Of a stretch of 64,000 bases of DNA, positions 9,257-61,853 are shown piece by piece; within the stretch, counting starts at the first letter, position 1, and every line of letters begins with the position of its first letter. The DNA comes from Naegleria gruberi (Eukaryota): NCBI GenBank assembly GCA_000004985.1, contig GG738861.1; one strand, written 5' to 3'. The position numbers were made by a program, and so were the translations under genes. Under the pieces are notes generated by a model. The model did no database searches and was not told the origin of the DNA. It saw only the letters and a list, made by a program, of their open reading frames with translations.

Positions 9257-9270
9257 AATTGGCGCCATTT
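9257..9270. promoter_or_regulatory. E2F-like GGCGCC element (AATTGGCGCCATTT), 106 nt upstream of the CFAP298 ATG
   Basis: One of only six GGCGCC hexamers in the window. Intergenic, flanked by A/T runs. Confidence 0.4.
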
Positions 9271-9357
9271 TTCAATTTTGTAATGGTCCTCATTCATATT
9301 ATCCCATTTAAAACATATTAGAAATTGAGAAGCTATTATCATTGGAAAAGAATTGAT

Positions 9358-10470
9358 TTATTGTTGTGGATTAGTACGCCAAATAACATCAACTTCATCT
9401 GTTCTATATCTTTGAGTCACAGAACATTCTTTCAATGGATACAATTCGTATAAAAGTTTGGTATTTTCCAAAACAGCTTGAGCTCCACCATGTTCCTTAG
9501 CAATGGCATTGAAATGTAAAATACCTGCATAGGCAATCATGCAACCATTATCAATACAATATCTATCATCCATGGCATGAAGTATACCTCCAGTTCTTTC
9601 AGAAACCATTTGTTGCATCATTTGTTGTAAACGTTCATTACAACCAACTCCACCAACGATTAAGACATCATTTGAGTTACAGTGAGCCATGGCTCTTTCT
9701 GTAATTTCAACAAGCATGGCAAATATTGTTTCTTGAAGTGAAAAACACAAATCTTCAGCTGTACATTCACCCTTCTTTAACATTTCCAAACCAAATTTTT
9801 CCAGCCATGATAAAATTCCTGAAAAACTAACATCCATTCCCTTTACAACATATGGCAGTTCAATATATTTCAAATCTGATCCATCTTCATTCTTTTTACG
9901 AGCCAGTTGTTCAATATTATATCCTGGACTTGGATCATTTGATAAATTTATCAGACGAGCAAATCTATCCAAACAATTACCAACAGCAATATCAATAGTT
10001 TCTCCAAAAATTCTATATTTTCCCATACTATAAGCAATAACTTGAGTATTACCTCCACTAACATATAATACTATTGGATTATCAGCTTTACAAACAACTC
10101 TTCCCATTTCAATATGTCCAATACAGTGATTGACAGGAATGAGAGGCTTTTTCCAGAGTTGAGCCAAAGTTCTTGCTACTACAGCTACAACATGTAGACA
10201 AGCACCCATTCCAGGTCCTTTAGTATAACATAAACAATCAACATCATCCTTTGTTATGTTAGCTTCCTTCAAGGCATTTTCAACCATGGAGAGAATGTGT
10301 TCCTTGTGATGGATTGCTGTTTCTCTCGGTAAAAATCCTGTTCCTGGTGGTGTGATGTAGGTATGTCTCAGATTACTTAAAATCTCACCATCCAATGTTA
10401 CCACTCCGATAGCTAATTTATTGGCACTTCCTTCAAATCCGAGAGCAATGATTCGTTTATTGTCAGACAT
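9358..10470 (-). CDS. OSGEP: tRNA N6-adenosine threonylcarbamoyltransferase Kae1/OSGEP, single exon, 370 aa
   Basis: Near-colinear with human OSGEP throughout: [81 protein letters not shown], and C-terminal [11 protein letters not shown]. Confidence 0.88.
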
Positions 10471-10586
10471 TTTTTAATAATATTTTAATTTAAAATAATT
10501 ATTGGATGATTTTAAAAATAGAGTTCTTAGATGTTTCAGAGCAGTGAGGTTTATTGATCTATTTCTTTAGATTATGAATTAAGAAA

Positions 10587-11747
10587 TTAATTCTTGTTAG
10601 TTGTTGGAAGAACAGGATTGCTTTCCAAGCTCATCTTGTATTTAACATAACTGTACCAAGCAACACCAACAAGTGTCAAAAAGACACCAAGCAAGTTCTT
10701 GGCTGAGATGGCAGATGTGAACAAAATAATACCACCAACAAAGACCAAGACTGTCTTGAAATAACCAACAACGTTGACAGAGAGTGGAGAAGTCTTACCA
10801 GCAACAAGGAAGAAACTGAAATTAACAAAGAAAGCAGTGATACAACTAGAAATAATCCAAAAAAGATTATTTCCATTTCCCCAATCATATTCAGAAATAA
10901 CTTCAGTATCATCAAAGAATGGAATTGTAAAGGCCAACATTACAGCACTAGTAATACTTTGATAGAGTAAAACTTGGAGAGAGTTTGCCTTCAATTCCTT
11001 TTGCTTTTCAGTACCATAAATTGTGTACAAGGAATTAGAGACGACAGCAAGAATTGCCATGAATGTTCCGTAGTAATTCATTTCCATATCTGTGAAAACT
11101 GTGATAAAAGTACCTAAACAAACAGGAATGAGAGTGTACAAAATTCTCTTATCTTGTGATTTTCTATAGAAGAAATATTCAATGGCAATAATTGTAGGAG
11201 TACACATAATTTTCATAACCTTTGGTTTTGCAATAATTTAGTTGCACATAATAAATCCGAATCATATCATCATTAATTATTATTATTTAAATATTATCAA
11301 AGTTCAAATCATCATATCACCACAATAATAATAATAATTATTTAATTCTATCACTCCACAACACAAAATTGTAAAACAAACCTGATAGAAGGAGACACTA
11401 TTATAGGCCAAACTAATATTATTGAAAACAACATAACCACAGAAAGCCAAACTGATTGGTAAAATCTTAATAATTGGAAGTCTCTTTGGTTGGAAAATAC
11501 CCAACATGGCTGCAACTGCAGTGAATCCGAAGCAAAATACAAAGTGGAACACTGTGAGAGTTGTTCCCAAACCAACAAAGCCTAGATTTTGGAACAAGTG
11601 CTTGTTGATAAAGATCGTACCAACAGATGCGGCAATATTAAGAGAGATCGATCCAATCACACTGGTCATTGTTGGTTCAGATGGTGAATCCACAGTTGCA
11701 TCACTCTGAACTGAATGTTTTTCCTCTGACGGATTGTTTCTGTTCAT
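10587..11747 (-). CDS. SLC35/TPT-family (drug/metabolite transporter superfamily) nucleotide-sugar-type transporter. Exons 11747..11382 and 11219..10587, about 332 aa
   Basis: Multi-span hydrophobic protein with FINKHLF, a hydrophobic SVSFYQ|VMKIMCTPTIIAIEYF junction and C-terminal KTSPLSVNVVGYFK typical of the TPT/SLC35E group as I recall it. GTTTGT donor at 11381, CCAAAG acceptor ending 11220, 162-nt phase-0 intron. Confidence 0.55.
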
Positions 11748-11851
11748 TTTTTAATTTAATAAAGTTTCATCCAAACTTCAGTGCTTTGGATGACAACAAG
11801 GTACAGTATTTGATAGTTGTGGATGACAATATTTAATAGATTTGAGTTTAT

Positions 11852-14800
11852 TTAAAATAATTCAGAAGAAGAACCTTCAGTAATGTTGGTATGACACAGT
11901 GGACAATGTCTGTACTTGTAAATTTCATGCTCTACGGCTCTATGTTTACAGGTAGAACAAGTCCAGAAATCTTGATCTCCAATATTTCTACCACTCACAA
12001 TACAAGTATAGAATGGAGCATTGCAGGAGGCACATGACTGCTCGTAATCGAATGTTTCATTACTGCAGGTTGGACATGGTTTTGTTTCCAAATCTGTTGA
12101 GTTAACAGGGCTATCTCTGAAAATATCAATGGCCAATTGTTCATACTTTTCCTTATCGTGTTCTGATAAAGCATCCATTGATTCTAACTTGATGAAAGCT
12201 TTGGAGCAAACCTTGAATTCTCTAGCATAGAAACCTGCTAAAGCAAGGAGCGAGTACAATTCCTTTGGAACAAAGTATTCTTCATACGATGAAACCAGCC
12301 TCATTGTAGTATTCAAACAATCACTAAGTTTGAATTCGGTAAGTTGTTTTTGGGCAAGCAAGAAAAAGTGATAAGCCTCAGCTCCTCTCCATGGATTTTC
12401 AAAATTGGTAGAAGCATCATGAGAGAGCATGGTTTGAAGTGCCTTGTTTGGATTCATTCTTGTTGCTTGATCATTTAACAATCTGGCTCTATATCTATCA
12501 ATCTCCAAAGCTGAAAGAACATAGAATTTCTTTGCTCTCAGTGGATGTAATTTCATCTTTCCCTCTTCCTCACCAAGTTTGGCAAGAATCTTGGCTGACT
12601 CTGTATTTCTGTTAGCTTTTTGGTATAATTCGATTGCTGCTGTCATATCTCCTCTAGAAACTAGATGGTTGGCATACTTGTACAGAATATCTTCAATTTC
12701 ACTCATATTGTGCTTTTCAGCCAATGTAACAGCTTCATCCCATTGATTCAATTCAACACAAACGTCGATAGCTTGCTTGATCTTACCACCCTTGACGAGA
12801 GCTTGAATAGCTTGAGTACTCAAACCAACAGAAGCCAACTTTTCACCGATTGGATGTAAAAGTGGATTATTCTCTGGTAGGTCATCAACCATTCTTTCCA
12901 ATGACTCAAAGTCTCCAATCCTATAATAAGCTTCAATTAATTTTTCAAAGTTTCTTGCCTTAACATAAAATTGAATTGAACGTTCCCATTGTTGTCTCTC
13001 AGAATAGAAATCTCCCAAGTGATTAAACACATCAATCAACATTTCATCACTTCCATTCATTTCTCTGACAAGACTGAGAACTTTCTTCCAGTCCCCGTAT
13101 CTCTTTCTCAAATCGATGGCAAGATCCTTTCTATCGATGGAACGATAGATCTTTTCTGCTTCATCCAATCTGTGGAAGTATGCTTCTATTTCTGCCTTTT
13201 GCTTAGCTTCGTTATCCAATTGTTTGATTTGTTTTACAAAATATACACCATGGTAATCACCACATTGGATGTAAGCCTTGTAAGCCATATCCAATTCTAA
13301 TTCAGACATTGCTGCTTCTGCCAATAATCTCCACAATCTTGGGTGAGGATTATCTTTAACAAATTCGTTAGCATCCCTCAAGCTGACACTTCTGATAATT
13401 TCCTTTGTATCTCTCAACGAACGACTTTCATAAGTGATGGCACAGTCAGAATCTGGATTATCTGGATTTGCCATAATATCATCCATAAACACTGACTTAA
13501 TTTTAAGATTGTTGAAAGCACACATGTAAGCTGAGGTAACTACAGGTTCCTCAGGAGTTAAATCTCTGAATGTGTACATCTTGGTCTTTTCCATTATAGC
13601 AAATAATGATGGATTATCGTCAGCCCATCTCATATCCCAAACATCTTTCTTTTCCAAATCTGTTTTATCAGCCATGATATTACCCTTCTTTTTCTTCTTT
13701 TCGCTTTGTACCATTTGTTGGGCTGCAACAACAGAAGATAAACTGTAAACAGTGAAAGTACTGTTAATATCAATGAGTGACAATTTGGTGCAATCACAAT
13801 TGATAGCAATTTGGAGAGGTCTACACATGACAGAACATGATCCAAGATATGCCAAAGTTGGTAGAAGTGAATAAATATTCACAGTACCAGATTCTCTTGC
13901 AATAATAAGGAATTTCTCATTTGAAAATACAGCACAAATAGCGTCCTCGGTAGTAGTAAGTTCCAATTTTGTTTCATCTTCAATCTTTTTAAATTTGTTT
14001 TGATCAATGTGCATTAAATATTGTTCAGATTCTCCCTTAATATTCAATATGTTGCCTTGAGTATTTTGCTTTGCTCTATAATTCCAAACATAAACATTAC
14101 AATCAGAGCAAACAATTACGTGATACTTGGTCATGGTGACGAATTTTGGTTCAACAGATTGCGACTTTGTTTCCACTGGACTACCTATCGAGTTACAAAT
14201 AATTATGACGAATGCTTCCTTTGGTGTTTCTGTTTTGGTGAGCAAAACACAATTTTCTCCACAAGCACTCAAAGCTAATAATTTCTTAATGTACTTTACA
14301 TATTTTTGTCTAGTCTTGTGATTATAAAATACTACACATTGCTCTGGTCTTTCTAATTTGGTAAAGGCATATACTACAGTCTTTGAGAAATAGCCCCATC
14401 TATAACTTGGTCTGACATTGGCAAAGAAAATATTTGCATCTACACCTAGAGCCAATCTCAAACCAGATCCTTCCCAAGTTACACTCTTTACACCATTGCC
14501 AGGTACTTTGAGAGTCTTTAAATGTTTACCATAAGGGGAATAAAATTGAATGATACCCATTGGTTTTCCATCCAAGTCTTGTTGACCAGCAAGAGCTAAA
14601 ACAGTACCAGATGGATTCCATTTTGGTTCATTGATGAGCATACCAGCATCGATTAGGACTGGATCATCATCCAAGTCACCTCTCATCAATTGGCACCTTC
14701 CATTTCTATAACAAATTGCTAGTGTTGGAGCATTAAGATCTGGATAACCTTCTCTTCCATCATACCAGTCAACACCAGCCAAAATATTATTTGATTGAGG

Positions 14801-15520
14801 ATTCATATCTACACAAGTAATATTGATTGAATGCTAGAAGAGTAAGAAAATCTAGTGTAATTAAAATACTTACCAATTTGATTCCTGAATTGGCATCAAA
14901 TAACCAAACTTCTCCATTTCCAGTTCCGAAGAGCAAATATCTTGCATCGGGAGACCATTCAACATTAACCAATTGAGTTTTCAAACTCTTTCCCCAATTT
15001 CTATTTCCGTCCACTCCACCAACAATTACAGCACCTTTAAAAATTGTAAATATTTCAAAATCATTCGACAATTTCACTTACCATCATCGTAGACAATACA
15101 AATCTTTTGACCATCACTAGACCACTTTAAATCCTTCACCACTGATTTTTCTCTATTATTCAACATTTCCTCTTCCCATTCCTTCTTTTGCTTATTATAA
15201 TTCCAAACAATAATGAGACCACTAGCATCGCTAGAAGTTAATTTTTCATTTTCCTCATTCCAACTCACTCTCATTACATTGGATGGAAGCTGATCTTTAC
15301 TTTCCTTTCCGGAGTGGCCAGCAAGAGTTTGATTGAATTCTAAACTTGTTGGTGCTGTTACACCTCTTTGATTAATATCAGCCTTAGTTTCTAACTTTAA
15401 AACTTTTAATAAACCATTCTCACCTCCGCAAGCAATCCAACCATGATAGCCATTCCAAGATATGTGATTGAGCTTGAGCCCATTAGGTATGCTCACCTTC
15501 TTGTTCAAGTATACCCACAT
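11852..15520 (-). CDS. WDR35: WDR35 / IFT121 (IFT-A complex WD40-TPR protein). Exons 15520..15082, 15034..14874, 14833..11852, about 1193 aa
   Basis: N-terminus [44 protein letters not shown] matches human WDR35 ([44 protein letters not shown]) and is colinear after that (ICIVYDDG|[71 protein letters not shown]). C-terminal TPR region ends in a Cys-rich zinc-ribbon-like tail. Introns of 47 nt (GTAAGT...TTAAAG) and 40 nt (GTAAGT...TTCTAG). Phase totals close (3582 nt). Confidence 0.85.
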
Positions 15521-15664
15521 TGTATTTTAATATATACACAACTAGATAATAATAGTATCTTCTTGTACCCTTGAGTGATGATGTAGATTAGATGTTTTTA
15601 CTCCACCAGCCAAAAAAACAAGTGTCCTGTCGATACAATTTTTTTGTAGTTTTGTATGGTTACT

Positions 15665-15676
15665 ATTGGCGCCAAT
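15665..15676. promoter_or_regulatory. E2F-like element, perfect 12-bp palindrome ATTGGCGCCAAT, 148 nt upstream of the WDR35/IFT121 ATG
   Basis: GGCGCC core. Also reads as two inverted CCAAT boxes. Confidence 0.4.
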
Positions 15677-15854
15677 GTTGTGCACAAACAAAAAAAGCCA
15701 ATCCAATAGCACAATTCAATACAACCAATACTGCCTTTACTAAGATATTTAAAATGATTTTATAAAAATAATAATAGAACTGTTTCAATATTGTCATTTT
15801 ACCAGAATAATTTGGAATGTATTGAAATAAATAGGAATTTCTCAAATAATTTAT

Positions 15855-17642
15855 TTAAGGTCTACATCTACCCATGAAACGAGGATACAAGCAAGTTTGT
15901 CTGACAGTTCTAACTCTGTTATGTTCATTCTTCAACAACCATAACATGTATCTTTCAAGACCCAAACCATAACCACCGTGTGGGCATGTACCATATTTTC
16001 TTTGGTCACTGTACCAATAGTATGGTTCAGCGCTGATTCCTTCCTTCTTGTATCCATCCATCATCTTGTCATATGATTCCAAACGCATACTTCCACCAAT
16101 AACTTCACCAACACCTGGGAGCAAAACGTCGACAGATTCAGTCAAAGTTGGTTCATCTTCACATCTCTTCATGTAGAAGGCCTTCATGTCACCTGGGAAT
16201 TTAATCATCAAAACTGGTTCACCAATCTTTTCCAACATCTTTCTTTCTGGAGCATCAGTAATATCATCACCAAATTCGAACAATTCCTTAGTTTCTTCAT
16301 CTTTGTAAACTTCGTTATTTCTACAGAATTCAATACAATCAGCATAGGTCATTCTCTTGAATGGTCTCTTAAGCTTCACAGCATCAGGTGTAATAACCAA
16401 TTTATCAGCAGTTTCTTCACCGACAACAGCCAAATGTTGACTCTTTGACAAAACTCTTTCAGTAACATCACAAACCAAATCTTCCAAAGTATTCAATAAA
16501 TCTTCAAATGTAATGAATGGTCTTTCAGCTTCAACGTGAGTGAATTCACTCAAGTGACGTGGAGTGTCAGACTTTTCAGCACGATATGATTGAGCAATAC
16601 AGAAGCTGTCACCAAGAGCTGGAATAACAGTTTCCAAATACAATTGACTTGATTGAGTCAAATAAGCATCTTCTCCAAAGTAATCAAATTTGAAAAGAGT
16701 TGAACCACCTTCAACTTGAGTTTGAACCATAGTTGGAGGAGTAATTTCAGTATAACCACGTGAATAATAATGTTCACGGAAACATTGTAAAATAATTGAA
16801 CGCATCTTTAAAATAGCAGAGGTCTTTTCTCCTCTTAAAATCAAGTGTCTTTGATCGAGTAAAATGTTTGGATCCTTAACATCTTCACCGAAAGGAAGAC
16901 TTTCAGGTGATGATCCGACCAATTTCCAATAATCAGCAACAAGTTCAAAGCCCATTGGAGCTCTTGGATCAGCTTTAACTGTACCCTTGATTGTTACTGA
17001 TGATTCCAAGTGAAGAGTCAAAGCTTCATAAGTTTGACATAAAACACCGCTCAATACAGTTTGGAGGAAACCAGTACCATCTCTCAATGTGATGAAAAGC
17101 AAACCCTTTCCTTGAATTCTAAGTCTGTGGCACCAACCAGAGACTTGAACTCTCTTTCCTTCAAAATCTTTAACTTGATGAACTTTAATTCTGGTAGCTT
17201 CTGGGAGAGTTGTATCTTCTTCAAAGGAAATCTTCTTAGCTTCTTCAAGTTTTTGTTGTTGTTGTTTTTCCTTTTCGTTTGTCTTTTCGAGTTCCTTTTG
17301 CATCTTTTCAATTCTCTTGGAGAGTTTCTTGGTTTGTGATTTGGCCATTGGTCTGGTCTTTAAGAATGTACCAACAAGGTTACACAATTCAGCAGATTCA
17401 CCGCCTTGATCTAAACCGGCTTCTCTCAGAGAGTTTTCGTTAACTTCACCAGCGAAGGAAGTTTGTGTCTTTGCTTGTTCAATAATAGGAGTCAAGAGGG
17501 CTTCAATAACCTTTTCTTGTTCTTCGCTCCATTGTCCTAATGTTTCCTTTTCTTGTTCCAACTTTTTGTTGGCTTCAGTGAAGAAAGCAACCAACAATGA
17601 CTTTGGGAGAGCTTCTGACATTTTTTGAATTTTTTTCAACAA
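15855..17642 (-). CDS. NARS: Cytosolic asparaginyl-tRNA synthetase (class IIb), single exon, 595 aa with N-terminal extension
   Basis: C-terminal motif 3 and tail YGTCPHGGYGLGLERYMLWLL...RTVRQTCLYPRFMGRCRP matches the eukaryotic AsnRS tail as I recall it (PHGGYGLGLER...LYPRF..RC.P). About 170-aa Lys/Glu-rich N-terminal extension before the anticodon-binding OB fold (KRVQVSGWCHRLR). Real start may be the second Met (MSEAL) at 17621. Confidence 0.85.
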   Translation of the reverse strand: MLKKIQKMSEALPKSLLVAFFTEANKKLEQEKETLGQWSEEQEKVIEALLTPIIEQAKTQTSFAGEVNENSLREAGLDQGGESAELCNLVGTFLKTRPMAKSQTKKLSKRIEKMQKELEKTNEKEKQQQQKLEEAKKISFEEDTTLPEATRIKVHQVKDFEGKRVQVSGWCHRLRIQGKGLLFITLRDGTGFLQTVLSGVLCQTYEALTLHLESSVTIKGTVKADPRAPMGFELVADYWKLVGSSPESLPFGEDVKDPNILLDQRHLILRGEKTSAILKMRSIILQCFREHYYSRGYTEITPPTMVQTQVEGGSTLFKFDYFGEDAYLTQSSQLYLETVIPALGDSFCIAQSYRAEKSDTPRHLSEFTHVEAERPFITFEDLLNTLEDLVCDVTERVLSKSQHLAVVGEETADKLVITPDAVKLKRPFKRMTYADCIEFCRNNEVYKDEETKELFEFGDDITDAPERKMLEKIGEPVLMIKFPGDMKAFYMKRCEDEPTLTESVDVLLPGVGEVIGGSMRLESYDKMMDGYKKEGISAEPYYWYSDQRKYGTCPHGGYGLGLERYMLWLLKNEHNRVRTVRQTCLYPRFMGRCRP

Positions 17643-17909
17643 TTTAATTTTAATAATTAGATAATTGAATTTTGCTGATGATGATTATTTATAATAATAA
17701 ATAGGTTCGTTTTTAGGTGTGCATTAATGTGTTAGTAGTACAGAAATCCATCCATCTTCTTCTTAATAATAAACAAGTCTATAATTACATGATGTTTCTT
17801 TAGAGTTTATTAATTGATTGAACACATCCAATCAAATTAAATAATAATTATTAATAAAACCAATTCACATTAAAATCATTTAACAATAACAATTTTAAAA
17901 AAAATAACA

Positions 17910-19183: not shown

Positions 19184-19198
19184 TTTAGGCGCCAAAAA
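19184..19198. promoter_or_regulatory. E2F-like element TTTAGGCGCCAAAAA, about 585 nt upstream of the LKB1 ATG
   Basis: GGCGCC core in the 0.9-kb intergenic region between the lipoate-ligase-like gene and LKB1. A 14-bp palindrome AAGCAACGTTGCTT follows at 19251..19264. Confidence 0.3.
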
Positions 19199-19772
19199 TT
19201 ACAACACAGAACACCAAATTATTGAAAAAAATTGAAACCAACTCTCGTTGAAGCAACGTTGCTTTTCATACAATTTCTATCAGATTGTGCAGAAGAAGAA
19301 TATAATTTTTTTGAGTATTGTAAAGCAAAATAAGGAAGACAATACGTTTGGAAGCACACCTATTTTAAAGGATAAATTACCAAAAATATTCAACAAGACA
19401 CAAAAAGCGTTTGTGCACAAAGCCTTTGATTACCTCATCGTAATACTCAACTCAAATTTCAAAGTTATTTTATTTTACCTAATTTTCAAAAAACACCACA
19501 GTATTATTATTGCAATCATTTAACAAACTATTTGGAAACGTATTATTAATTGGATTCACTAATAGCTATCCAGTGTTCATATTAATATTTCATCTATTTA
19601 TTACACTCCGAGTTGATAACATCCATCACACCGATAAAAAATTGTACAACACCTCTTTCCTGCATTACGCACTGTGTTGGAAAACTTGATTTAAAAAGGA
19701 AACCATCAATATTCTACTCAGTATTATTACAATCTTGAGTTTCCTCTCTGACACAAACTCTCACCATTTAAT

Positions 19773-21874
19773 ATGATATCTGGCGTGAATAGCAGAAAAT
19801 CATCATCATCAACTGGTATCACACTACCTTCTTTTTCATCATCACCAAACCATCCAATGTCCTCTCTTTCGAATCCAAGCTCATCACCGATGACTTCCCC
19901 TCTCCATAATGCTCACCACCAACAACCATCTTTTTTGAGCCATTCTTCCCAACCAACTTATACGGCACCAACAACTATGAATACCAATGTAGCCATGATG
20001 GGAAGGACTCTTAGCAATACGAGCATTGCCAGCGATGATCTGAATGAAATAACGTATGGCCAAAAACAAAAACCACACAAACAAGTTAAACAATATATAC
20101 TCGGCGAAGTTCTTGGAGAAGGTAAGTTTTATTAATAGGAAAATAATGGAAAATTAACATGCTCTATTAAATCTTTATGATTAACATTATCAATTCTACT
20201 ACTATTTGATTCTACTACCAATAATATAACAATGTAAAAACAATGATAATATTTATGTGGATATTGTGGAAAATAGGAGCTTTTGGTAAGGTTCGGGAAG
20301 CCATTGATTCTAACTCACTGAAGAGAGTTGCCATCAAGATTATAAAACGAGACAAGCTCAAACGTATCAAGAATGGTGAAACACTTCTCAAGAATGAAAT
20401 TAACATTATGAGAAAATTAAAGTCTCACAAGAATATTATCAAACTTATCGAGGTCATACATGTGGAAGGAGGAGCTGCATCAGGACATTCATCTGTATCA
20501 TCAGTTAGTGGTGCTGGTAGAATGAGCATTTCTAACATATTTGTAAATCAGTCAGCATCAAGTACCGAGAAGGTACCAACAAATTCTCAGACACAACCAA
20601 ATGGAGCAAACACTTCTTTTAATTCAAAGAAAGCCAGAACGTATATGGTTATCGAATTTGCTGGTGCAGGAAGCTTGCAACAGTTAATGAATTCACAACC
20701 AAATAATCGTTTACCTGTAAATGAAGTTTGGCACTATTTTAGACAATTAATTGATGGATTAGAATATATGCACAGTCTGGGAATAATTCACAGAGATATC
20801 AAACCAGCTAATTTGATGATTACTCCAGATAGAGTTCTTAAAATTAGTGATTTTGGTACAGCAATTGAACTCGACCACTTCTCTCCAAGTGACGAATGTA
20901 CACAAAGCTTTGGTACACCTCATTTTCAATCGCCACAAATTGCTACAGGTTTGAAACAATTTTCAGGTTACAAGTTGGATATTTGGGCTTGTGGTGTTTC
21001 CTTATATGTATTGATTGTTGGAAAACAACCATTCCATGATGATGGTAATATTATGAATTTGTATGAACAAATTGCCTTAGGAAAATATGAAATACCTGAT
21101 TGGGTTGAAAACGATCTTAAGGTTCTCATTAAGGGAATGATGACAGTTGATGAAGATCAAAGATGGACTATTGAGGCCATTAAATCCAGTGAATGGTTTA
21201 ATACAACAAGATATAGTGATACAATGACTGATAGAAATTCTATCGACTCTCACCAATCGATTGGTCGTGAATCAACTAATTCTGCCAAGCTTTCTTCGGC
21301 CAACATTTCACGAACCAATTCTAGGGTTGGTGCAGCCAAGAAGATTCTTGTCGATAGATGGAAGAGTTTTACCTTACTTCCCTATTTGGCCAAAGCAGTT
21401 AATACTGAAGCTAGTGCCATGACTCCAACAACCACCCAACAACAACCTCTCTCAGCTAGAAGTACAACAAGTGTTAGTTCTGGAAATCTTGATCAATTGG
21501 AAAGAAAATCCATCGGACAAGTACCTCCACAACCAAGTACAACACCTCACAAGAGTCTCAATCTTAGTGATTATGCTACTCTTCAACAAGGAGGAGCAAA
21601 TATTGATTCAATGAGTATTGATGGAAGTAATGACAGTTTTGATCATCACAATACAAAGGATGGTATGTCTGACGATGGAAATGCAACTCCAAATGCTGAG
21701 AATGCTGATGACATTATGACCTTAAAGCTTACAACTCCAGCTGCCTCTAAAGGAACGTCAAAGGGATCAAAATCTTCAAAACGAAAGTTAAATGTTACCT
21801 CTTCTAATGCAAACAATACTGCTACAGAGAGTCAGAGCCAGGGAGAACAAGATAAAAAGTGCACCATCATGTAA
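19773..21874 (+). CDS. STK11: LKB1/STK11 serine/threonine kinase orthologue. Exons 19773..20121 and 20277..21874, about 648 aa
   Basis: Kinase core YILGEVLGEG|AFGKVREAIDSNSLKRVAIKII..LKRIKNGETLLKNEINIMRKL matches LKB1 ([42 protein letters not shown]). HRDIKPANLMIT, FGTPHFQSPQIATGL, KLDIWACGVSLY and a C-terminal SEWF also match. The 155-nt phase-1 intron (GTAAGT at 20122, AATAG acceptor ending 20276) restores the Gly-rich loop. Ser-rich N-terminal and C-terminal extensions. Confidence 0.8.
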
Positions 21875-31249: not shown

Positions 31250-31322
31250 CGCCCCACGTGGGGCTCGAACCCACGACCGTTGGATTAAAAGTCCAACGCT
31301 CTACCGACTGAGCTAGCGGGGC
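31250..31322 (-). tRNA. tRNA-Lys (anticodon UUU), 73 nt, no intron
   Basis: Reverse complement of 31250..31322 is GCCCCGCTAGCTCAGTCGGTAGAGCGTTGGACTTTTAATCCAACGGTCGTGGGTTCGAGCCCCACGTGGGGCG. It folds as a cloverleaf: 7-bp acceptor stem with one G-U, D-arm GCTC/GAGC, anticodon stem TTGGA/TCCAA with loop CTTTTAA (anticodon TTT), T-arm GTGGG-TTCGAGC-CCCAC, discriminator G. Close to the canonical eukaryotic tRNA-Lys(UUU) as I recall it. Confidence 0.88.
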
Positions 31323-31507: not shown

Positions 31508-32069
31508 ATGCTTAAGGGGACAGCATCTATTGAGGAGTTAGAATCGAGGCTTCCTCCAGAAACATTGAAGGTATATCGCGAAGCTTTCAGTGTCTATGAT
31601 ATAAACGGTGATGGAGTTATCGAAACTCATGAGTTGGTTCAAGTGATGAAGAATATTGGTGCTTCCATGACAGAGAACGATCTACATAATCTCCTTCAAG
31701 AAGCTGGAGTTGGTGATAATGTGGATTTTCATGCCTTTTTGCAAATCATGTTCTCTACATCTGGTGATGCAACCGATGATATTGAGCAAAGCATTAGAGC
31801 CTCATTCAGAGTTTTGGATGCCGACGGTGATGGCTTAATAGGAATTGAAGAGTGTAAGTTATATAACTACCAAAATTATTTTTAAGAATCTATTCATCCT
31901 CTTGCCAAATATTAATATTTCCAACTATTCTTACTCATTAGTAAAACTCATGCTTCAAAAACTAGGAGAAGAAATAAGCGACGCTCAATTGGAACAAGTG
32001 ATATCAATGGCAGATAAGGATAAGGACGGAAAGATCAATATTGATGACTTTATCAGGATTATGAAGTAA
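31508..32069 (+). CDS. Calmodulin-like four-EF-hand calcium-binding protein. Exons 31508..31853 and 31942..32069, about 157 aa
   Basis: EF-hand loops DINGDGVIETHE, DADGDGLIGIEE and DKDKDGKINIDD. GTAAGT donor at 31854 and CATTAG acceptor ending 31941 (88-nt phase-1 intron) remove the in-frame stop and give ...GIEELKLMLQKLGEEISDAQLEQVISMADKDKDGKINIDDFIRIMK. Confidence 0.7.
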
Positions 32070-32994: not shown

Positions 32995-33009
32995 AAATGG
33001 CGCCTTTTC
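32995..33009. promoter_or_regulatory. E2F-like element AAAATGGCGCCTTTT, 43 nt upstream of the SPEF1 ATG
   Basis: GGCGCC core with symmetric A/T flanks. Confidence 0.4.
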
Positions 33010-33041: not shown

Positions 33042-34107
33042 ATGCAACGATTTCAAAGGGACGGTCCCCCTCAATCACCACCAGCTTCATCGCGAGGAAG
33101 GGATGCCCAACAACAGCAACAACAACAACACGATACCAGCATGGAGTCTCCGTTCGATGAAGAAGAATTACAATTATTGTATTCATGGGTCGATGAAATA
33201 CCCTTATCAAGGCCAAAAAAGAATATTGCCAGAGATTTTAGTGATGGTGTAATGATGGCCGAAGTGGTCAAACATTTCTTCCCTAAACTTGTCGATCTTC
33301 ATAATTATAGCTCTACTTCAAGTTCCAAACAAAAAATCTACAATTGGAACACCCTAGATCGTAAGTACTATCCTCAATATTTAATGGCATATACATTAAT
33401 ACCTGTTTTCAGAAAAGGTTTTTCAGAAAATTGGATTTTCTGTTGACCCAAAGGAAATTGATGACATGGTCAAGTGTAAGCCTTTTGCAGCAGAAAGAAT
33501 GCTCAAAACCTTTCAAATCAAAGTAACTCAGATACAACAACGAAAAGCTACTCAACAAGTAACCCAACCAACAAAGCCAGCAACAAGCAATACATCAAAA
33601 GACTCTATTCCATCATCTTCAGCCTCAAGTAGAGTAATAACCAAGAGACCTGCATCTGCCTCTTCTGTAAGAACTAGGGAACAATCAAGACCTTCATCAG
33701 CTCATATCAATCGTGGTGGAGAACAAAAAGTGGAGAGACCAACATTAGTGGAGAGAAAAAACTTGGTCGAAAGGAATGAAAGGAAAAGTGACATGCATTT
33801 GGAGAGAGTGGAAAGAGACTTTGATGAAGATATGGATGCAGTCTCTCATCACAGTAGTAGGGCAAGAAATAGAGATCATTTCCTGGAACAACAACCACCA
33901 ATCGATGATGAAACTTTGTACAATAACAAACAACACATGAATATGCCTGTCTTTGAAGAATCGGAATTGATAAAGGAAAAAGATGCTAAAATTCATGAAT
34001 TAGAGGAGACAGTCAAACTGTTAGAATCAAAGATTAACAAATTACAATTATTAATTCGTTTGAAAGATTCCAAAATTCAAGCTCTCAGCAATAAAATCAA
34101 AACCTAG
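33042..34107 (+). CDS. SPEF1: SPEF1/CLAMP-type calponin-homology (DUF1042) microtubule-binding flagellar protein. Exons 33042..33360 and 33413..34107, about 337 aa
   Basis: EEELQLLYSWVDEIPLSRPKKNIARDFSDGVMMAEVVKHFFPKLVDLHNYSSTSSSKQKIYNWNTLD|QKVFQKIGFSVDPKEIDDMVKCKPFAAERMLKTFQIKV is colinear with human SPEF1 (LHQLYLWVDNIPLSRPKRNLSRDFSDGVLVAEVIKFYFPKMVEMHNYVP...NWGHLNRKVLKRLNFSVPDDVMRKIAQCAPGVVELVL). GTAAGT at 33361, TTTTCAG acceptor ending 33412, 52-nt phase-1 intron. C-terminal coiled-coil tail. Confidence 0.75.
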
Positions 34108-43040: not shown

Positions 43041-43150
43041 TTTTTTTCAAATCACTTCCCGCCAATATTATTTTATATTTAATATAATAATACTATTTAA
43101 TAATATTAAAAATCACATTGTTACAATTTCTTATTTTAATAAAAAATTAA

Positions 43151-50228: not shown

Positions 50229-50366
50229 TAAATTAATGTAAATACTTATTGCAAAAAAAAAAGAATGCAAGAGAATGTTCTTTATTAACGCATGTTGTCG
50301 AATATGTTTGCCAGTCTATATATCCGTTTGCCATCTTAATCGATAAGATTGGTCGCATAGAGATTA

Positions 50367-52298: not shown

Positions 52299-52516
52299 TT
52301 GGATATTTTTTATGAGGTCAAAATCACGTTTGGAATTTAATAATAATTAATTAAATATTCATTGTTAATTTTATTCGAAAACGTGCTTTATATATCATGA
52401 ACACGTGTTCATGCATCACCAGGTTTTACAGTGTTTTTTTTTAATTTCAACAATTCCATTCGTAACACTCACGTTGTGGACTTGCAATCACGTTTCTAAT
52501 GAGAAAATTATTTGGC

Positions 52517-55030: not shown

Positions 55031-55226
55031 TATTTTGATTGAAGTTTAATTTACTATTGATTTTGATTGTTATTAATATGATTTTATTCTTAAATTTTTT
55101 GTAGACAAATATTACATCGTAGTCGTGATGGATTGTTTTATATCATTTCGCAGTGATGGTTACCATCGATGATAAATAAATTATTTGGTTTGTGATGATA
55201 CAAAAAGTAGTGGGTAGAGCAAAATT

Positions 55227-55240
55227 GAAGGCGCCAAAAA
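55227..55240. promoter_or_regulatory. E2F-like element GAAGGCGCCAAAAA in the divergent PPR/GCN5 promoter, 32 nt upstream of the GCN5 ATG
   Basis: GGCGCC core. The 231-nt bidirectional intergenic region lies between the PPR start (55030, minus) and GCN5 start (55262, plus). Confidence 0.35.
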
Positions 55241-55261
55241 TATTTTTATTTTTAAAAAAAA

Positions 55262-56929
55262 ATGCCTCAGCTTGGTAAACGGAAGGCCAAGAAGGAAGAA
55301 ACTGATAGTAGTGGTTCGGATAGTGAAGATCAAGGAGGAGAGGAAATGACTTGTCTGGAAAATCCTCCAATTTCCGAGATTTTGTGGAATTTTTTAATTG
55401 TAAATTATGAGCAGACTGATATGAAGAAACAAGCAACAAATGTTTGCAAGATCATTTTAAAAACGTTAAAATCAGAAAAATTACCAAAACCCGAGGAAAA
55501 TGATGGAAAATATAAGGAAGTATATTCAAAGTACACAAAACTGGATCAGGAGGCTAAACTGAATATTGTTGACATTTTCGGAAGAAGTTTACTGGAGAAA
55601 CAATTTGATCACCTATTCCAAGTGATCACTAAGGAGTATATATTTAAAGATTTTAGTGCCGAGAGTATGTTTGAATTATTAAAGAAGGAAATTGATGATT
55701 CCACATCAATAATATTCAGACCTGATTTTGATGATCTGTACTCTGGTGTAGATCAATCAAAATCTGAAAAGCTTTCAAAACCTTCTAAAAAATCAGGAAA
55801 TAACAATAGAAAGCAAAACAATCAAACTGATGATGAAAGATGCTCCAGAGTTGTTATGGTCACAACTTCTACTCAAATATTGGGGCCTGATCTCGGTTCA
55901 TCTGCATCAGGTTCTTCAAATAAGGGAAATGAACAGACTGCTCTTCGTTTTGAAATCGTTTTCAATGATGGATCAGTTGATAGCTTGCAAAAACTATTGG
56001 CTGCCAAGAACATTTATGGTAAACAATTGCCAAAGATGCCTAAGGATTACATTGCCAGATTGGTTTTTGACAGAAGTCACAGAACCATTGTAGGTTTACA
56101 AAATGGACAAATTGTAGGTGGTATCAGTTTTAGACCATTCTTTCCACAAGGATTTTCTGAAATTGCTTTCTGTGCCATTACAGGTAACGAACAAGTTAAA
56201 GGTTATGGTACAAAACTTATGAACCATTTAAAGGACTATTGTCAAACGATTGGTTGTTATAGATTTTTAACATATGCGGACAACTTTGCCATTGGTTATT
56301 TCAAGAAACAAGGTTTTACAAAAGAAATTTCACTAGACGAAAAGAGATATAAGGGCTACATTAAGGATTACGATGGAGGTACACTCATGGAATGTGTGAT
56401 AAGAACAGACATTAATTATTTGGACGTACCAATTATGATTGTAAAACAAAAGCAAGCACTCCAACTAAAGCTGAAAGAAGTTTCCAACTCTGACAAGGTT
56501 TATCCAGGTATTAAATTATTTAAAAATGGTGGCAAGATAAATGGCCCAGAAGATGTGCCTGGCCTTCAAGAGATTGGTTATCAACAAGAAACCAGATCAA
56601 GAGATCACAAACTTCATGCTGCATTTGTGGAGGTGTTGGAAAAACTAAAACGACATGAACATTCTTGGCCATTCTTAGAGCCAGTTGATCCAGAAGAAGT
56701 TCCAGATTATTACGATGTTATCAAGTTACCAATTGATTTATCGACAATTGAACAACGTTTGAAAAAGGATTACTATCGTACTAAGGATATATTTGTAAGC
56801 GATGTCAGATTAATCTTTGAGAATTGCAGAACTTACAACTCTGAACAAACAGAATATTATTCTGCTGCTAACAAATTAGAGGAATACTTTAAAACAATTA
56901 TGAGCAAGATTTTACAACAGAAAAATTAA
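55262..56929 (+). CDS. GCN5: GCN5/KAT2 histone acetyltransferase with C-terminal bromodomain, single exon, 555 aa
   Basis: HAT core [29 protein letters not shown] (matches GCN5 [27 protein letters not shown]). YFKKQGF. Bromodomain [37 protein letters not shown]...[13 protein letters not shown]. Confidence 0.88.
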   Translation: [555 protein letters not shown]

Positions 56930-56984
56930 ATTATTACTATTTCATTAATTCTTTCGTATTTACATTTATTAAGTTTTCATCCAA

Positions 56985-58383
56985 TTAATACAACTTATTG
57001 ACCTTTCCAACAAATAACACCACATCATCTCTCTTCAACACAAACGCAAATGGACGATCAATAACAAAATCTCTCTGATCCAACTCATCCACAATCGAAG
57101 TCGTCCGTCCAACAATAATAGAAGCAGTAGCAGCAGCTGCCTCAGTTCCCAATTCATCGACACGAATGTAGGCCTTGTGGAAGATTTTATCAATCCACAA
57201 TTGCATGAGAGGTTTCATTGGGTGATCGGGTTGGATCATGGCTGAGAAGTTGGCAGCCTCTCTTTCGAAGGAGGTTATCATTTTGAAATCACCATTCTCG
57301 TCCTTGAGAATATTGGAAAGTTCAGATTCAAATTCGAGTTTAAATTTTGGAATTCTAACGAGACGCATATTAGTTTGAGTGGTTGTAAAGACGGGAGTCG
57401 AGCTGGAGAGTGAGTTGGCAATGAATTGGTCAAAATTCTTATCAGTTGCAGCTGAGAATGGAAGATTAAATTTGGAAACAATAAAAGTCATTTGATAATT
57501 GGTGTTGGAATAGGGCAAGGTCAACCAATTGTATTCATCGTTATCGCCAAACATTTCGAAAACATCCCTCTTGATCATGTATGGAACTTGTTGTTGAAGA
57601 ATTTCATTGGTGATTCTACAAGTTTCGAATATGTGAAAAAATACACTTATATACTTACGAAAGTTGCTTAAATGAGGCATTTGTTGTCATATCCTTACTG
57701 AATGGAGATTGCCACTCTCCTAAAAAGTAAATTGCATTTACCAACACTAACTTGGTATCACTTGTAATTGCACCCACAGGAATCAACTCTTTAATAAGCT
57801 GATTCGTTCTATCCGAAACAAATGAATTAATATCAACTCTTTCAGCCTCTGCATTCCCAGAAAAATCAGCCGATTTCACATTCGAGTGAAAATCATCTCT
57901 TATCAATTGTAAATAATCATAACTCAATGGATAACTCTTCTCAATGTAAATTCCATTGGCAACACTGAGAATTGAATCATTTGTTGTGGTGATGAGAGAA
58001 CTCCACTCATGAGAATAATCCTTAATAGATTGTTCGAATTGAGTGACATTCTCAGGTTGATTTAGAGAAAGGAAGGAAGTATCTTGTGGAAAACCAAGTG
58101 CAAGTGCAATTTCATTAAAGGTTTCATTTCTGGCACCAATCATGGTCATGGAGAGGACGGTATGAATGGAAAATGGTGAGTAGACAAGATTTTGAGGTGC
58201 TTGTTGATTTGAAGTGCTGCTGTTGTTGGTTGGAATGAGAAAAGATTGATAGAGTTTTGAACTGAAAACAGAGATTGCACGTGGAATTTGGAATTGTTGG
58301 CAACTGACTCCTAATATAAAAACAGATAATAGGTAAATCAAAAAGATTAAACGTTGAGTCATTTTGTTGAAAGATATTTTCAT
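56985..58383 (-). CDS. Secreted serpin (serine protease inhibitor). Exons 58383..57659 and 57615..56985, about 451 aa
   Basis: Signal peptide (LIFLIYLLSVFILGVSC). NAIYFLGEWQSPF breach motif. Hinge and reactive-centre loop ELGTEAAAATASIIVGRT. Shutter VIDRPFAFVL. Frame-shifted ORFs joined by GTAAGT donor at 57658 and CTTGTAG acceptor ending 57616 (43-nt phase-2 intron). Confidence 0.75.
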
Positions 58384-58475
58384 TTCCTTTTGATTTTTGG
58401 TAATGCCTTTATAGAAAATGGGCCTCTTCCATTTTGGGTGATTTGCTGTTTGTGTCTTTTTGATTTATTAATAAA

Positions 58476-61400
58476 TTAATTTTCATCAGTCACTATTTGT
58501 CTGGATAACATTGGGTGGTTTTTTACACATTTCACTCTGGAAGCAAATGTTAGAGTAGAGATTGTCTCAGAAACACTCTTTTTATCTGGTGATACGTTGG
58601 CAAACATGAGAGTTTTGGAATTGCCTCCAATCATATCTTGTAACATGAGAGTGAGTTTAGAATTTCTATATGGAATGTGCTTTTGGTGAGTAGAGAGGGC
58701 TGCAATCACATCTCCCAATGCTGAGAGACTCTTATTAATATGCTGAGCTTCTTTAAATCTATCACCAATGGAATTCGATCTGGAAACTCGCTCAGAACCA
58801 GCCAAATCAACAAAGGCAATCTTACTTTCCTTTTTGAATAGTCTTCCTTGTGGGTTGAGAGAGGTTGGTTGAGTATATCCTTCCATACTGATTTTGATAG
58901 TAAAGATAGTGTGTGACCTTGAGGACTGATCATTCATGTCAGTTTTGGAAATTTGCTTTACCTCATTTCCAAATTCCAATAATCTAACCAAATCATTTGG
59001 ATGATACACATCTACTTCGATACAGTTTGTGACAGACATCTTACCGTTCTTTGATTGTCTGAGTTGTGGAGGCTTTCTCTTATCTGTGGCCTTAAATTGA
59101 TTCTCTGAATCTTGATATTTTTCAAAGAGATCGTTCAAAGTGTCAAGATACAATTCAACCATGCTGCATGAGATGGAGAAAGCCTCAGTCCTTGAGCACA
59201 TTTGTTTTTCTAAAGAATAGAACAGATAGTCAGCTGTTCTTTGAATTAATCCACATTGGTTAGATTGATCCTCCCCATGAATGGTAAAGGTTTTACCACT
59301 TCCCGTTTGGCCATAAGCAAAAATACACAAATTGTAGCCATCAAGTGCGCTCTGAAGCATTGGTTTCACGTGCTCAAAAACATCCTCTTGGGAAATGTTT
59401 TCATCAAGCACCTTAAAGAAGTCATACTCTTTCAGTCCTAGATTTTGACTTCCAACAGTGATAGTTGTATCATCTTTAATGTCTATCCTTCCATTTGAAA
59501 GGTCAGTCGCCTGTTCATCCCCTATTAAAGGCCTCATTCTTACTATTACTCGAATATTTCCCTTCATATCTTCCACAAGATTGTGCAAGGACTTTCTCTT
59601 TTTAACTTCCTCTTCGAATAAATTTCTAAGAGCATTATAATCTGAATAGAGGTCATTATACCTCTTTTCAATTAAAGCTCGCTCCTTTGCAGCTTCCATT
59701 ATTAAACTTGCAGTATCATAATCACCTCTCATTAATTTTCCAATTTGATTCTTTAAATTTTCAATTGCATATTCTGCAGAATCAACAAACTTCTTATCTG
59801 ACTCTATCTTTTGATTAGCAACTTCAAGCTCTGTTTCTATTTGGTCAATGATATTCTGAGATTCTATCCTTTCTTGTTGTTGAACCAATTTCAGAATTTC
59901 TATTTCTTCCGCCCAATTTCTTAAAATTGTATCCTTCTCTCTATTCCATGCTACTTGTTTTTCAATTTCAAACTTGTTTCTCCAAACTTGAGATTCTTGA
60001 ACTAGTTCATTTTTCAATTGCGTTGCAGAATTCTCCATCTGCACAATTTTCCCATCTCTTTCCCTGATGCTAGCTTGCAGTTCGGCCAGTTGTTGCTTGA
60101 GTTTTGTAATGTCTTCTGAAGCTGCTCCTCCTCTTGTTCCGTAAGGTGTTTTTTGTATATCTTTCTCTGATAACAATTCCTTCCTTAGCCTTGTATTTTC
60201 AGTCATTAACTCCTGCCTATCTTCATTTGCCTTTTGTAGAATCTCCTTCTTTTCAGAAGCATACTTCCTTGACAGTTTCAATTTCTCGTCATTCATTTGA
60301 TTTTGAAAATGTTTTTCAAGAGCCATTCTTATGGTTTTTTCTCTCTCAGCCTCAACATCTGACATTTTGAATCTAGGAGAAAAGACTGAGTCTCTAGGAG
60401 GGCTGCTTGAAAATGATACAATATAGGAGGAGGTATTCATACTCATGTTATTCCTTGGTTCAGTCTTGGTTGCTTCATTATCTCTAGTGGGATTAATAAA
60501 ACTGTTGATAAAAGAATCATCCAGATCATATTCTTCATTTCGATCCTCAGATTGTGAAGAAGATAACTTTGGAGAAAGTTGTTTTGCAATAGGTGAAGGG
60601 GATTTCGAATCGTTTTGGTATGGTTGATTTGGGGAGGATAATTGTTGAGGAGGAGAGTCGTGTTGAAGGGGTTGCTTACTTGGTGAAGTGAGCTTGTTTG
60701 GAGACGGAGTTTTTGGAGGTCTTGGTTGCTCTTCTTCGAGAAGCATTTCATCATTTTGTTGTTGATTTACCTTATTCGGAGACTGCCTCTTTTCGATTTG
60801 ATTTTCATATTGCTTTCTTTGAGAAATATGGACAAGAATGAGCACAGTTTTATCTGACAAGCTCAAAGATGATCCTGTTACATGGTCCTCGAGCGGTTTA
60901 GAAACTGAGATTTCTTGTGTAGGTACAGAGGCGTAAAGTACTTGCTCCTCAACTGGTACATTTACAACTCGGTGAAGATTGGATTTAATCTTGTAAACCT
61001 TCAATTTGTTCACATCCTTATATTTGATCAGAATTTTGTAATTCTTTTGTGTAATTGTCGAAAAAACTGTAAATGAAAATTTCTCTTCACCTTGATTTGA
61101 AATAGCAGGTTGGGCGACAACTTTTTCTACCTTTTCAGGTGACACTTTCAAATTTTCTTTAGTAATTGTTTGTGGAATAATATTAGGATTTTGAGGTTGT
61201 AGAACGGAGGGTGTTTTCTTTTTGGTGACAAGTTCAAAAGATACCTTCTTGGAAGGTGTCTTATTAGGAGTCTTTCCTTGATGGGTTGGTGCTTCCACAT
61301 TCTCATCATTAGACTTATTGTACAGCATCTTCTTTAAGCCACCAAAACTTGTCTTGTTTGGAGTGATGACACCGTTTGTTGATGTGGTAAGAGATGATTT

Positions 61401-61853
61401 GTTAGTGTTGGAAGGAGTTAGAGTTGAGGAAGATTTGGTGATTGGGAGAGGGGAGGATTGATTCGCCAAATCATTTAATATCGAGAGTGTATCTTGTTCA
61501 GGTTTTTGTTGCACTTGTTGATCGGAATTTATCATCATCACACCACCAGCCTTAGTATTGTTATTCTTGTTGGGAATATTGGAGGGAATGATGAGTGAAG
61601 ATTCTCTGATCCATGAGCCTGATGATGGTGTCGATGAGGAATTATTGATTGTATTTGAAGAGGGTAAACTTGATGTAGACTTCCTCAATGCCCAAATGTT
61701 AGCCTTGTTGGGTGTTGTACTTCCGGAGACTACTCTTGTTGTGGAAGAGGGACGTTGCATCCTTTTTTTATGAGATGAATTTTCGTTTTTACTTTTTGGC
61801 GCCAAATAAAAGGAGGCAATTTTCAAGTAATAAGAATACCCAACTTCTAACAA
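58476..61853 (-). CDS. Kinesin-14 (C-terminal motor; KIFC/Ncd/Kar3 class), single exon, 1125 aa from first ATG. Likelier start is Met 61760
   Basis: C-terminal motor with RVIVRMRP, P-loop FAYGQTGSGKTFT, switch I SSRSHTIF, switch II VDLAGSER, and a minus-end-type neck just before it. Long coiled-coil stalk. Ser/Thr-rich N-terminal tail. An E2F-like GGCGCC element at 61798 lies 38 nt upstream of the MQRPSS Met but inside the ORF if 61853 is used, which favours 61760 as the start. Confidence 0.85.
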   Translation of the reverse strand: MLEVGYSYYLKIASFYLAPKSKNENSSHKKRMQRPSSTTRVVSGSTTPNKANIWALRKSTSSLPSSNTINNSSSTPSSGSWIRESSLIIPSNIPNKNNNTKAGGVMMINSDQQVQQKPEQDTLSILNDLANQSSPLPITKSSSTLTPSNTNKSSLTTSTNGVITPNKTSFGGLKKMLYNKSNDENVEAPTHQGKTPNKTPSKKVSFELVTKKKTPSVLQPQNPNIIPQTITKENLKVSPEKVEKVVAQPAISNQGEEKFSFTVFSTITQKNYKILIKYKDVNKLKVYKIKSNLHRVVNVPVEEQVLYASVPTQEISVSKPLEDHVTGSSLSLSDKTVLILVHISQRKQYENQIEKRQSPNKVNQQQNDEMLLEEEQPRPPKTPSPNKLTSPSKQPLQHDSPPQQLSSPNQPYQNDSKSPSPIAKQLSPKLSSSQSEDRNEEYDLDDSFINSFINPTRDNEATKTEPRNNMSMNTSSYIVSFSSSPPRDSVFSPRFKMSDVEAEREKTIRMALEKHFQNQMNDEKLKLSRKYASEKKEILQKANEDRQELMTENTRLRKELLSEKDIQKTPYGTRGGAASEDITKLKQQLAELQASIRERDGKIVQMENSATQLKNELVQESQVWRNKFEIEKQVAWNREKDTILRNWAEEIEILKLVQQQERIESQNIIDQIETELEVANQKIESDKKFVDSAEYAIENLKNQIGKLMRGDYDTASLIMEAAKERALIEKRYNDLYSDYNALRNLFEEEVKKRKSLHNLVEDMKGNIRVIVRMRPLIGDEQATDLSNGRIDIKDDTTITVGSQNLGLKEYDFFKVLDENISQEDVFEHVKPMLQSALDGYNLCIFAYGQTGSGKTFTIHGEDQSNQCGLIQRTADYLFYSLEKQMCSRTEAFSISCSMVELYLDTLNDLFEKYQDSENQFKATDKRKPPQLRQSKNGKMSVTNCIEVDVYHPNDLVRLLEFGNEVKQISKTDMNDQSSRSHTIFTIKISMEGYTQPTSLNPQGRLFKKESKIAFVDLAGSERVSRSNSIGDRFKEAQHINKSLSALGDVIAALSTHQKHIPYRNSKLTLMLQDMIGGNSKTLMFANVSPDKKSVSETISTLTFASRVKCVKNHPMLSRQIVTDEN
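61793..61807. promoter_or_regulatory. E2F-like element TTTTTGGCGCCAAAT (contains canonical TTTGGCGCCAAA), about 38 nt upstream of the likely kinesin-14 start Met 61760
   Basis: Exact match to the palindromic E2F/DP consensus TTTSGCGCSAAA. Confidence 0.4.

Follow-up and report, generated by a model that had tools for sequence, protein, structure and literature searches.

The window analyzed here, a 64,000-nt stretch of the genome of the heterolobosean amoeboflagellate Naegleria gruberi (scaffold_17:192001-256000), holds about 35 genes, among them housekeeping genes such as Kae1, AsnRS and FtsH and three recognizable cilium genes, CFAP298, IFT121 (WDR35) and a SPEF1-like gene. Our subject is the short word GGCGCC, which recurs six times in this stretch, in front of the three cilium genes and of genes for an LKB1-like kinase, GCN5 and a kinesin-14 (Table 1). 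A preliminary description had named these six downstream genes from sequence; Pfam and NCBI comparisons uphold CFAP298, IFT121/WDR35, a SPEF1-type protein, GCN5 and kinesin-14, and for the remaining gene they identify a protein kinase domain, LKB1 being the label first given to it. The 984-aa open reading frame (ORF) at 11852-14806 is 100% identical to NAEGRDRAFT_32701 of N. gruberi, whose published coordinates on scaffold_17 are 203852-207520 (Kae1, 201358-202470), and the kinesin ORF that begins at 61760 matches, without a difference, the protein that NCBI calls kinesin-14. Site 6 falls within an ORF listed with a TTG start, yet upstream of the annotated kinesin-14 ATG. Site 5 also lies ~230 nt upstream of a divergent PPR gene.

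Table 1. GGCGCC sites, associated genes and further promoter features (window coordinates, except where a locus in another genome is named)
Feature	Position	Strand	Description
Site 1, ATTGGCGCCATT	9258..9269		105 nt upstream of CFAP298 ATG (9155, -); 92 nt downstream of Kae1 stop codon
Site 2, ATTGGCGCCAAT	15665..15676		Perfect 12-nt palindrome; 147 nt upstream of IFT121/WDR35 ATG (15520, -)
Site 3, TTAGGCGCCAAA	19185..19196		TTTGGCGC on - strand; at the head of the LKB1-like gene's ATG-free leader
Site 4, AATGGCGCCTTT	32996..33007		37 nt upstream of SPEF1-like (CH_2) ATG 33042
Site 5, GAAGGCGCCAAA	55227..55238		TTTGGCGC on - strand; 26 nt upstream of GCN5 ATG (55262, +)
Site 6, TTTGGCGCCAAA	61795..61806		Two overlapping consensus E2F sites; 37 nt upstream of kinesin-14 ATG (61760, -)
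Candidate seventh E2F-like site, TTCCCGCCAAT	43056..43066	+	CCCGCC type; single occurrence; divergent intergenic region
CFAP298 gene	8273..9155	-	Two exons seen; Pfam
IFT121/WDR35 gene (jgi_32701, NAEGRDRAFT_32701)	11852..15520	-	Pfam
LKB1-like protein kinase gene	19773..21874	+	Pfam kinase domain
SPEF1-like gene	33042..34107	+	CH_2 domain; Pfam
GCN5 histone acetyltransferase gene	55262..56929	+	Pfam GNAT plus bromodomain
Kinesin-14 gene (XP_002678643.1)	58476..61760	-	Pfam C-terminal-motor kinesin
ATG-free stretch	19194..19772	+	579 nt from site 3 to the kinase start codon; probable 5' UTR
AACTACAAAAAA block	15640..15651	-	14 nt downstream (gene direction) of site 2; second conserved IFT121 promoter block
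AACTACAAAAAA, N. fowleri (L005)	9899-9910
AACTACAAAAAA, uncultured Naegleria (L008)	370-381
AACTACAAAAAA, Willaertia magna (L006)	8076-8087 and 17788-17799
AACTACAAAAAA, N. lovaniensis (L011)	about 9930

The window is poor in G+C (34%) and strongly depleted in CpG, with 757 CG dinucleotides observed against 1,859 expected. GGCGCC is nonetheless found at 9261, 15668, 19188, 32999, 55230 and 61798, six copies where about one had been expected by chance: dinucleotide-preserving shuffles of the whole window contained 0.56 copies on average and never more than 4, so that none of the 100 came to six. No other GC-only hexamer has more than two copies in the window. Coding sequence was masked as all stop-to-stop ORFs of at least 100 codons; long ORFs cover ~84% of the window, leaving a non-coding remainder of 15.6% (9,956 bases). 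All six copies fall in this remainder, as first described, against an order-2 Markov expectation of 0.09 (P=5.6e-10), and GGCGCC ranks first among 1,611 hexamers for enrichment there, with GCGCCA second because it reads the same six sites. The E2F consensus TTTSSCGC has four matches in the window, at three sites, and the looser TTSSCGCS eight, at six places, all of them non-coding.

The six sites are confined to intergenic DNA that contains a promoter. None of the seven convergent (3'-3') intergenic regions of the window carries GGCGCC, and the genes on either side of site 55230 are divergent, which makes a 3'-end signal impossible. Five sites stand 26-147 nt from an ATG, in agreement with the earlier placement just upstream of start codons. 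The sixth, site 3, is 579 nt from the kinase start codon and heads a stretch in which no ATG occurs where 9.4 would be expected (P=8e-5); the 300 nt upstream of the motif hold three. Because of this lack of ATG codons, site 3 most likely marks the start of a long 5' untranslated region (UTR) of the LKB1-like gene. A 5' UTR of 579 nt is unusually long for this compact genome.

We report that one of these sites is conserved well beyond N. gruberi. Since the gene order of AsnRS followed by IFT121 is maintained, the IFT121 promoter can be read in five further genomes, and the element is found there in all six heterolobosean genomes. N. fowleri has TTTGGCGCCATG 133 nt upstream of the IFT121 ATG (L005:9868) and N. 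lovaniensis has CTTGGCGCCTTT 114 nt upstream (L011:9887), in each case the only GGCGCC in the 23.7 kb fetched, while an uncultured Naegleria with 83% protein identity carries GTTGGCGCCATC 78 nt upstream (L008:349), the only GGCGCC in 5.6 kb. Willaertia magna, with a G+C content of 26%, has GGCGCT, which reads TTAGGCGCT on the other strand, 40 nt upstream of the ATG (L006:8064), and Acrasis kona has TTTGGCGCAA, which contains TTTGGCGC, 12 nt upstream (L007:9989). In a five-way alignment of the promoter the mean column identity is 40% and the invariant columns are those of the motif. The IFT121 copy is a conservation island across Heterolobosea amid diverged surroundings. It is accompanied by a second conserved block, AACTACAAAAAA, exact in N. 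fowleri, the uncultured Naegleria and Willaertia and present in N. lovaniensis, which follows the motif by 7-30 nt in the IFT121 promoters of the Naegleria species and Willaertia. This block could be the transcription start or initiator region or the site of a second factor. In Willaertia the composite TTTCGCGCC-N6-AACTACAA also stands at the head of two duplicated promoters in an unrelated family of kinase genes.

Canonical E2F/DP sites follow the consensus TTTSSCGC, and two inverted copies may overlap where transcription starts, as in TTTCGCGCCAAA of the mammalian DHFR promoter. The Naegleria sites resemble them in having a palindromic GC core with A/T flanks, in being independent of orientation and in lying close to the start without an obvious TATA box. 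The consensus is matched exactly at three of the six sites (19189, 55231 and 61795/61799). The preliminary description had singled out a perfect 12-mer palindrome and an exact E2F/DP site; the palindrome is ATTGGCGCCAAT at IFT121, and among the exact sites TTTGGCGCCAAA at 61795 comprises two overlapping consensus sites. The Naegleria sites differ from canonical ones in that half of them have weakened T-runs and in their targets, which include intraflagellar transport (IFT), axonemal-assembly and central-pair genes of a heterolobosean amoeboflagellate.

Factors that could read such sites are encoded in the genome. Sequences of N. gruberi E2F, DP, DEL (E2F7/8-type) and Rb are given in the supplement of an earlier study (Medina et al., 2016; PMC4862756), and those of E2F (NAEGRDRAFT_54558), DP (50903) and the DEL-like protein (71591) match NCBI N. 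gruberi proteins exactly. E2F contains an E2F_TDP and a CC-MB domain, DP an E2F_TDP and a DP domain, and DEL two E2F_TDP domains. The presence of both E2F and DP removes an objection foreseen in the preliminary description, namely that such a factor might be absent. The DNA-binding domain of N. gruberi E2F aligns with that of human E2F4 in 1CF7, the crystal structure of E2F4-DP2 on DNA; the two RRXYD recognition helices are identical, from which it is reasonable to infer that the protein keeps its TTTSSCGC specificity. Three cell-cycle loci (E2F, DEL-like and CDK1) were picked beforehand for comparison. CDK1/cdc2, read from a 1.9-kb contig of an environmental strain near-identical to N. gruberi, has ATTGGCGCG 97 nt upstream of its ATG, the only GCGC on that contig, with a chance probability of ~1e-3 as estimated from base composition.

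These observations indicate that the GGCGCC sites are very probably functional promoter elements located close to the transcription start. As to the factor that occupies them, an E2F/DP or E2F7/8-like protein is the best-supported identity, to which we assign a probability of about 0.6, because the consensus is exact at three sites, the half-site is kept in Acrasis and at CDK1, and the recognition helix is unchanged. Naegleria amoebae switch on their flagellar programme de novo when they differentiate into flagellates. We propose that the GGCGCC words would be the cores of E2F-family binding sites with the consensus (T/A)TTGGCGC(C/G), placed at the transcription start or a short way before it in a subset of N. 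gruberi promoters. An E2F-DP heterodimer, or an atypical E2F, would bind the palindromic core and, together with Rb, would turn these promoters on or off, and the same factor may in this way couple cell-cycle genes (CDK1, probably kinesin-14) with genes of the flagellar programme (IFT121, CFAP298, SPEF1). The sites might serve an activator in differentiation or a repressor in growing amoebae, either being possible. The earlier proposal of a shared E2F-type cis-regulatory element thus gains support from the enrichment, the conservation at IFT121, the encoded E2F, DP, DEL and Rb and the CDK1 word ATTGGCGCG; its extension to a ciliogenesis module is suggestive.

The cilium link draws on the fact that all three recognizable cilium genes among the ~35 of the window have a site, which corresponds to a hypergeometric P of ~0.003 with categories set after seeing the data. 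Ten window ORFs without Pfam hits were compared with all PDB sequences, including those of axoneme structures, and gave no match; no hidden known cilium gene was therefore found in the window. In published time courses, IFT121 rises by log2 8.1-10.4 in differentiation (~1000-fold) and is not scored as mitotic (Kennard et al., bioRxiv 10.1101/2024.01.08.573270, Data S2). Its neighbor Kae1 changes by 1.3 or less (log2) there. According to this study, the five paralogues of kinesin-14 divide into two that are mitotic and three specific to differentiation, with jgi_65526, 66196, 75257 and 78071 as candidates for the window gene. Several cell-cycle genes, MCM4, Apc6 and GCP3, are scored up in differentiation in the same table, and Aurora rises by ~2.4 log2 at 40 min. 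These rises of cell-cycle genes are compatible with E2F activity at that stage, rather than a demonstration of it. A 2025 review lists RFX, FOXJ1 and XAP5 as absent from Naegleria and regards the regulators of its cilia genes as unknown, so that other factors are needed (PMC12183034). That GGCGCC defines a ciliogenesis regulon is a hypothesis drawn from the three genes of this window and from a single promoter with deep conservation; the word might just as well mark a wider set of E2F genes, some cilium genes among them. It is possible, though we consider it doubtful, that an E2F/DP or E2F7/8-like protein directly regulates the programme by which Naegleria forms basal bodies and flagella de novo.

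Several observations weigh against E2F as the factor or against its cilium role. Three of the six sites depart from the exact TTTSSCGC, two of them having ATT (ATTGGCGC), and the SPEF1 site (32999), AATGGCGCCTTT, lacks a T-run on either strand, its flanks being A-rich on the 5' side and T-rich on the 3' side, the reverse of an E2F site. The comparison with canonical cell-cycle promoters consists of CDK1 alone, with 120 nt of promoter. The cilium association involves few genes; three of the six site-bearing genes are not cilium genes, and two of these, GCN5 and the LKB1-like kinase, fit neither the cell-cycle nor the cilium set in any obvious way. At CFAP298 the picture is equivocal, with no positional conservation of the site in N. 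fowleri or N. lovaniensis: N. fowleri has TGGCGCGA ~80 nt upstream, but on the opposite side of a conserved GTTGTATGA block, and the N. lovaniensis promoter has TGGCGG only. The loci of these two species are also sparser, with one promoter site per ~45 kb, and the candidate cilium neighbors there encode importin-alpha, a calmodulin-like protein and a leucine-rich repeat (LRR) protein, none of which is a cilium gene. Finally, E2F-like words are not enriched upstream of IFT121 in 59 non-heterolobosean metagenomic contigs, which are mostly transcripts and make this a weak test.

Some of these features would suit a different, possibly lineage-specific, dimeric factor that drives flagellar differentiation by binding the palindrome TGGCGCCA, with the resemblance to E2F sites a coincidence. 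The invariant part of the motif is the GGCGCC palindrome and not the T-run; half of the sites lack TTT, the flanks at SPEF1 are reversed, and the palindrome stands at all three cilium genes of the window. The expression data, which present IFT121 as differentiation-specific and not mitotic, point the same way, as does the lack of known cilia-gene regulators in Naegleria (PMC12183034). This explanation has to contend, however, with the Acrasis word TTTGGCGCA, in which the palindrome is broken and the E2F half-site intact, with GGCGCT in Willaertia, with ATTGGCGCG rather than the palindrome at CDK1, with the three site-bearing genes that are not cilium genes, and with the existence in N. gruberi of a factor whose E2F recognition helix is fully conserved, and we regard it as unlikely. 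A generic core-promoter or start-site-positioning word of one class of TATA-less promoters, without regulatory content particular to one gene set or another and with its cilium association an accident of small sample, seems to us quite improbable. It would account for sites as close as 26-147 nt to start codons, for a functionally mixed set of targets, for the roughly fixed short distance between the IFT121 site and AACTACAAAAAA, a possible initiator, and for the same composite at the unrelated Willaertia kinase family. Only ~6 of roughly 35 window promoters have the word, however, the housekeeping neighbors (Kae1, AsnRS, FtsH and others) do without it, and its deep conservation at one orthologous promoter speaks for use at particular genes.

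Chance, base composition, surviving CpG islands or the remnants of repeats and mobile elements are, in our judgment, negligible as explanations. Non-coding DNA in this CpG-depleted genome is relatively richer in CpG (observed/expected 0.62, against 0.38 in coding DNA), which would suit a compositional origin. The shuffles and the Markov expectation, the scarcity of every other GC-only hexamer, and conservation at the orthologous position in other species all speak against it, and a chance or repeat origin is effectively refuted by these statistics and this conservation. The sequences beyond ~3 nt on either side of the motif are unrelated among the six sites and hence belong to no repeat family, for which reason a repeat or mobile-element origin was rejected.

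Binding by an E2F-family protein, the reading we prefer, invites comparison with systems known from animals. In vertebrate multiciliated cells, complexes of E2F4/E2F5 with Multicilin (MCIDAS) or GEMC1 turn on the genes for basal-body duplication as well as FOXJ1/RFX (PMC12183034). The parallel would lie in an E2F employed outside the division cycle for ciliogenesis and for making basal bodies in mass or de novo; in Naegleria, too, basal bodies arise de novo while the cell is not dividing. The Naegleria sites differ in lying directly on IFT121, CFAP298 and SPEF1. The RFX X-box (GTTGCCATGGCAAC) is the regulon element of animal and choanoflagellate cilium genes. It is likewise a short palindromic, promoter-proximal word common to cilium genes, of which GGCGCC would be a functional analogue if the cilium link holds, but its sequence differs and RFX is reported absent from Naegleria (PMC12183034). 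A comparison with the X-box, put forward in the preliminary description, yielded nothing above chance: the window has two matches with three mismatches, both in coding sequence, for 1.89 expected. The pairing of a GC-rich E2F-like element with a second conserved start-proximal block (at IFT121, TTGGCGCC then AACTACAAAAAA) also recalls the CDE/CHR arrangement of the DREAM complex. Unlike the second element there, AACTACAAAAAA is not a CHR (TTYGAA), and none of the six sites has a TTYGAA at fixed spacing; the one instance, a TTTGAA, lies 16 nt upstream at SPEF1.

E2F sites are textbook knowledge, and the use of E2F4/5 in vertebrate multiciliated cells is established. What is new here is the lineage, and also a conserved site placed directly at the IFT gene of a protist without the known cilia-gene factors. 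In the literature searched we found no mention of GGCGCC in Naegleria promoters or of a link between E2F and Naegleria gene regulation, and for Naegleria it appears that no promoter element was described before this one. How ciliated eukaryotes other than animals activate cilium genes in their hundreds has yet to be answered, and Naegleria is a classic system for the synchronous de novo assembly of basal bodies and flagella. A conserved E2F-type word on IFT121, and within the window also on CFAP298 and SPEF1, offers a concrete candidate factor and site. If the link is real, Naegleria would have a counterpart to the second use of E2F4/5 in vertebrate multiciliated cells, and the flagellar programme would be tied to the cell-cycle machinery in a very distant lineage; a coupling of E2F to ciliogenesis known only from those vertebrate cells would then be ancient or convergent, and the missing cilia-gene transcription factor would be supplied in a lineage that lacks RFX, FOXJ1 and XAP5. 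If the cilium link fails, an ordinary E2F site remains, unsurprising and of value for annotation.

Further E2F-like words were noted in the window and in the genomes compared. The candidate seventh site of the window, TTCCCGCCAAT, lies ~95 nt upstream of the ATG (43151, +) of an AMP-binding/NAD_binding_4 reductase gene. A small SWIM zinc-finger gene of Willaertia, which may encode an Sws1-type recombination factor, has TTTGGCGCT 64 nt upstream. Willaertia magna also has two copies of the perfect E2F word TTTCCCGCCAAA (L004, 14718 and 17556); one falls within a Band_7 gene as annotated, ~125 nt from its 5' end, so that the start codon of this model may be wrong. In N. lovaniensis, the CFAP298 model on PYSW02000016.1 (L003, 11255-15139) is fused with a downstream RING/WD40 (RFWD3-like) gene into a product of 1,201 aa, probably an annotation error, the two being separate genes in N. 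fowleri (L009).

When metagenomes were scanned with an alignment of IFT121, 80 loci were recovered; their identity did not exceed 46%, and most are intron-less transcripts with a leader of 50-400 nt. Two of the metagenome contigs (L061 and L091; 56% G+C, from a GC-rich protist) contain CCGAGGCGCC twice each, ~60 nt apart, the pairs lying roughly 100-165 nt upstream of the IFT121 homologue. Metagenome ENA ERZ929261 (run ERR1078381; L001, L002 and L012) contains a strain almost identical to N. gruberi NEG-M, with identical proteins and small indels in intergenic DNA. Site 1 is kept in the near-identical environmental strain although there are indels nearby.

The CpG ratios of coding and non-coding DNA given above stand beside GpC ratios of 0.80 and 0.99, which are not depleted; CpG depletion without GpC depletion would be in keeping with methylation of cytosine in N. 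gruberi. The six motif CpGs belong to just 124 non-coding CpGs in the window. A tRNA-Lys(UUU) gene at 31250-31322 (-) lies between the genes for a copper ATPase and a calmodulin-like protein, the latter being the EF-hand gene at 31508, and it explains three of the five copies of CCCACG, another hexamer enriched in non-coding DNA.

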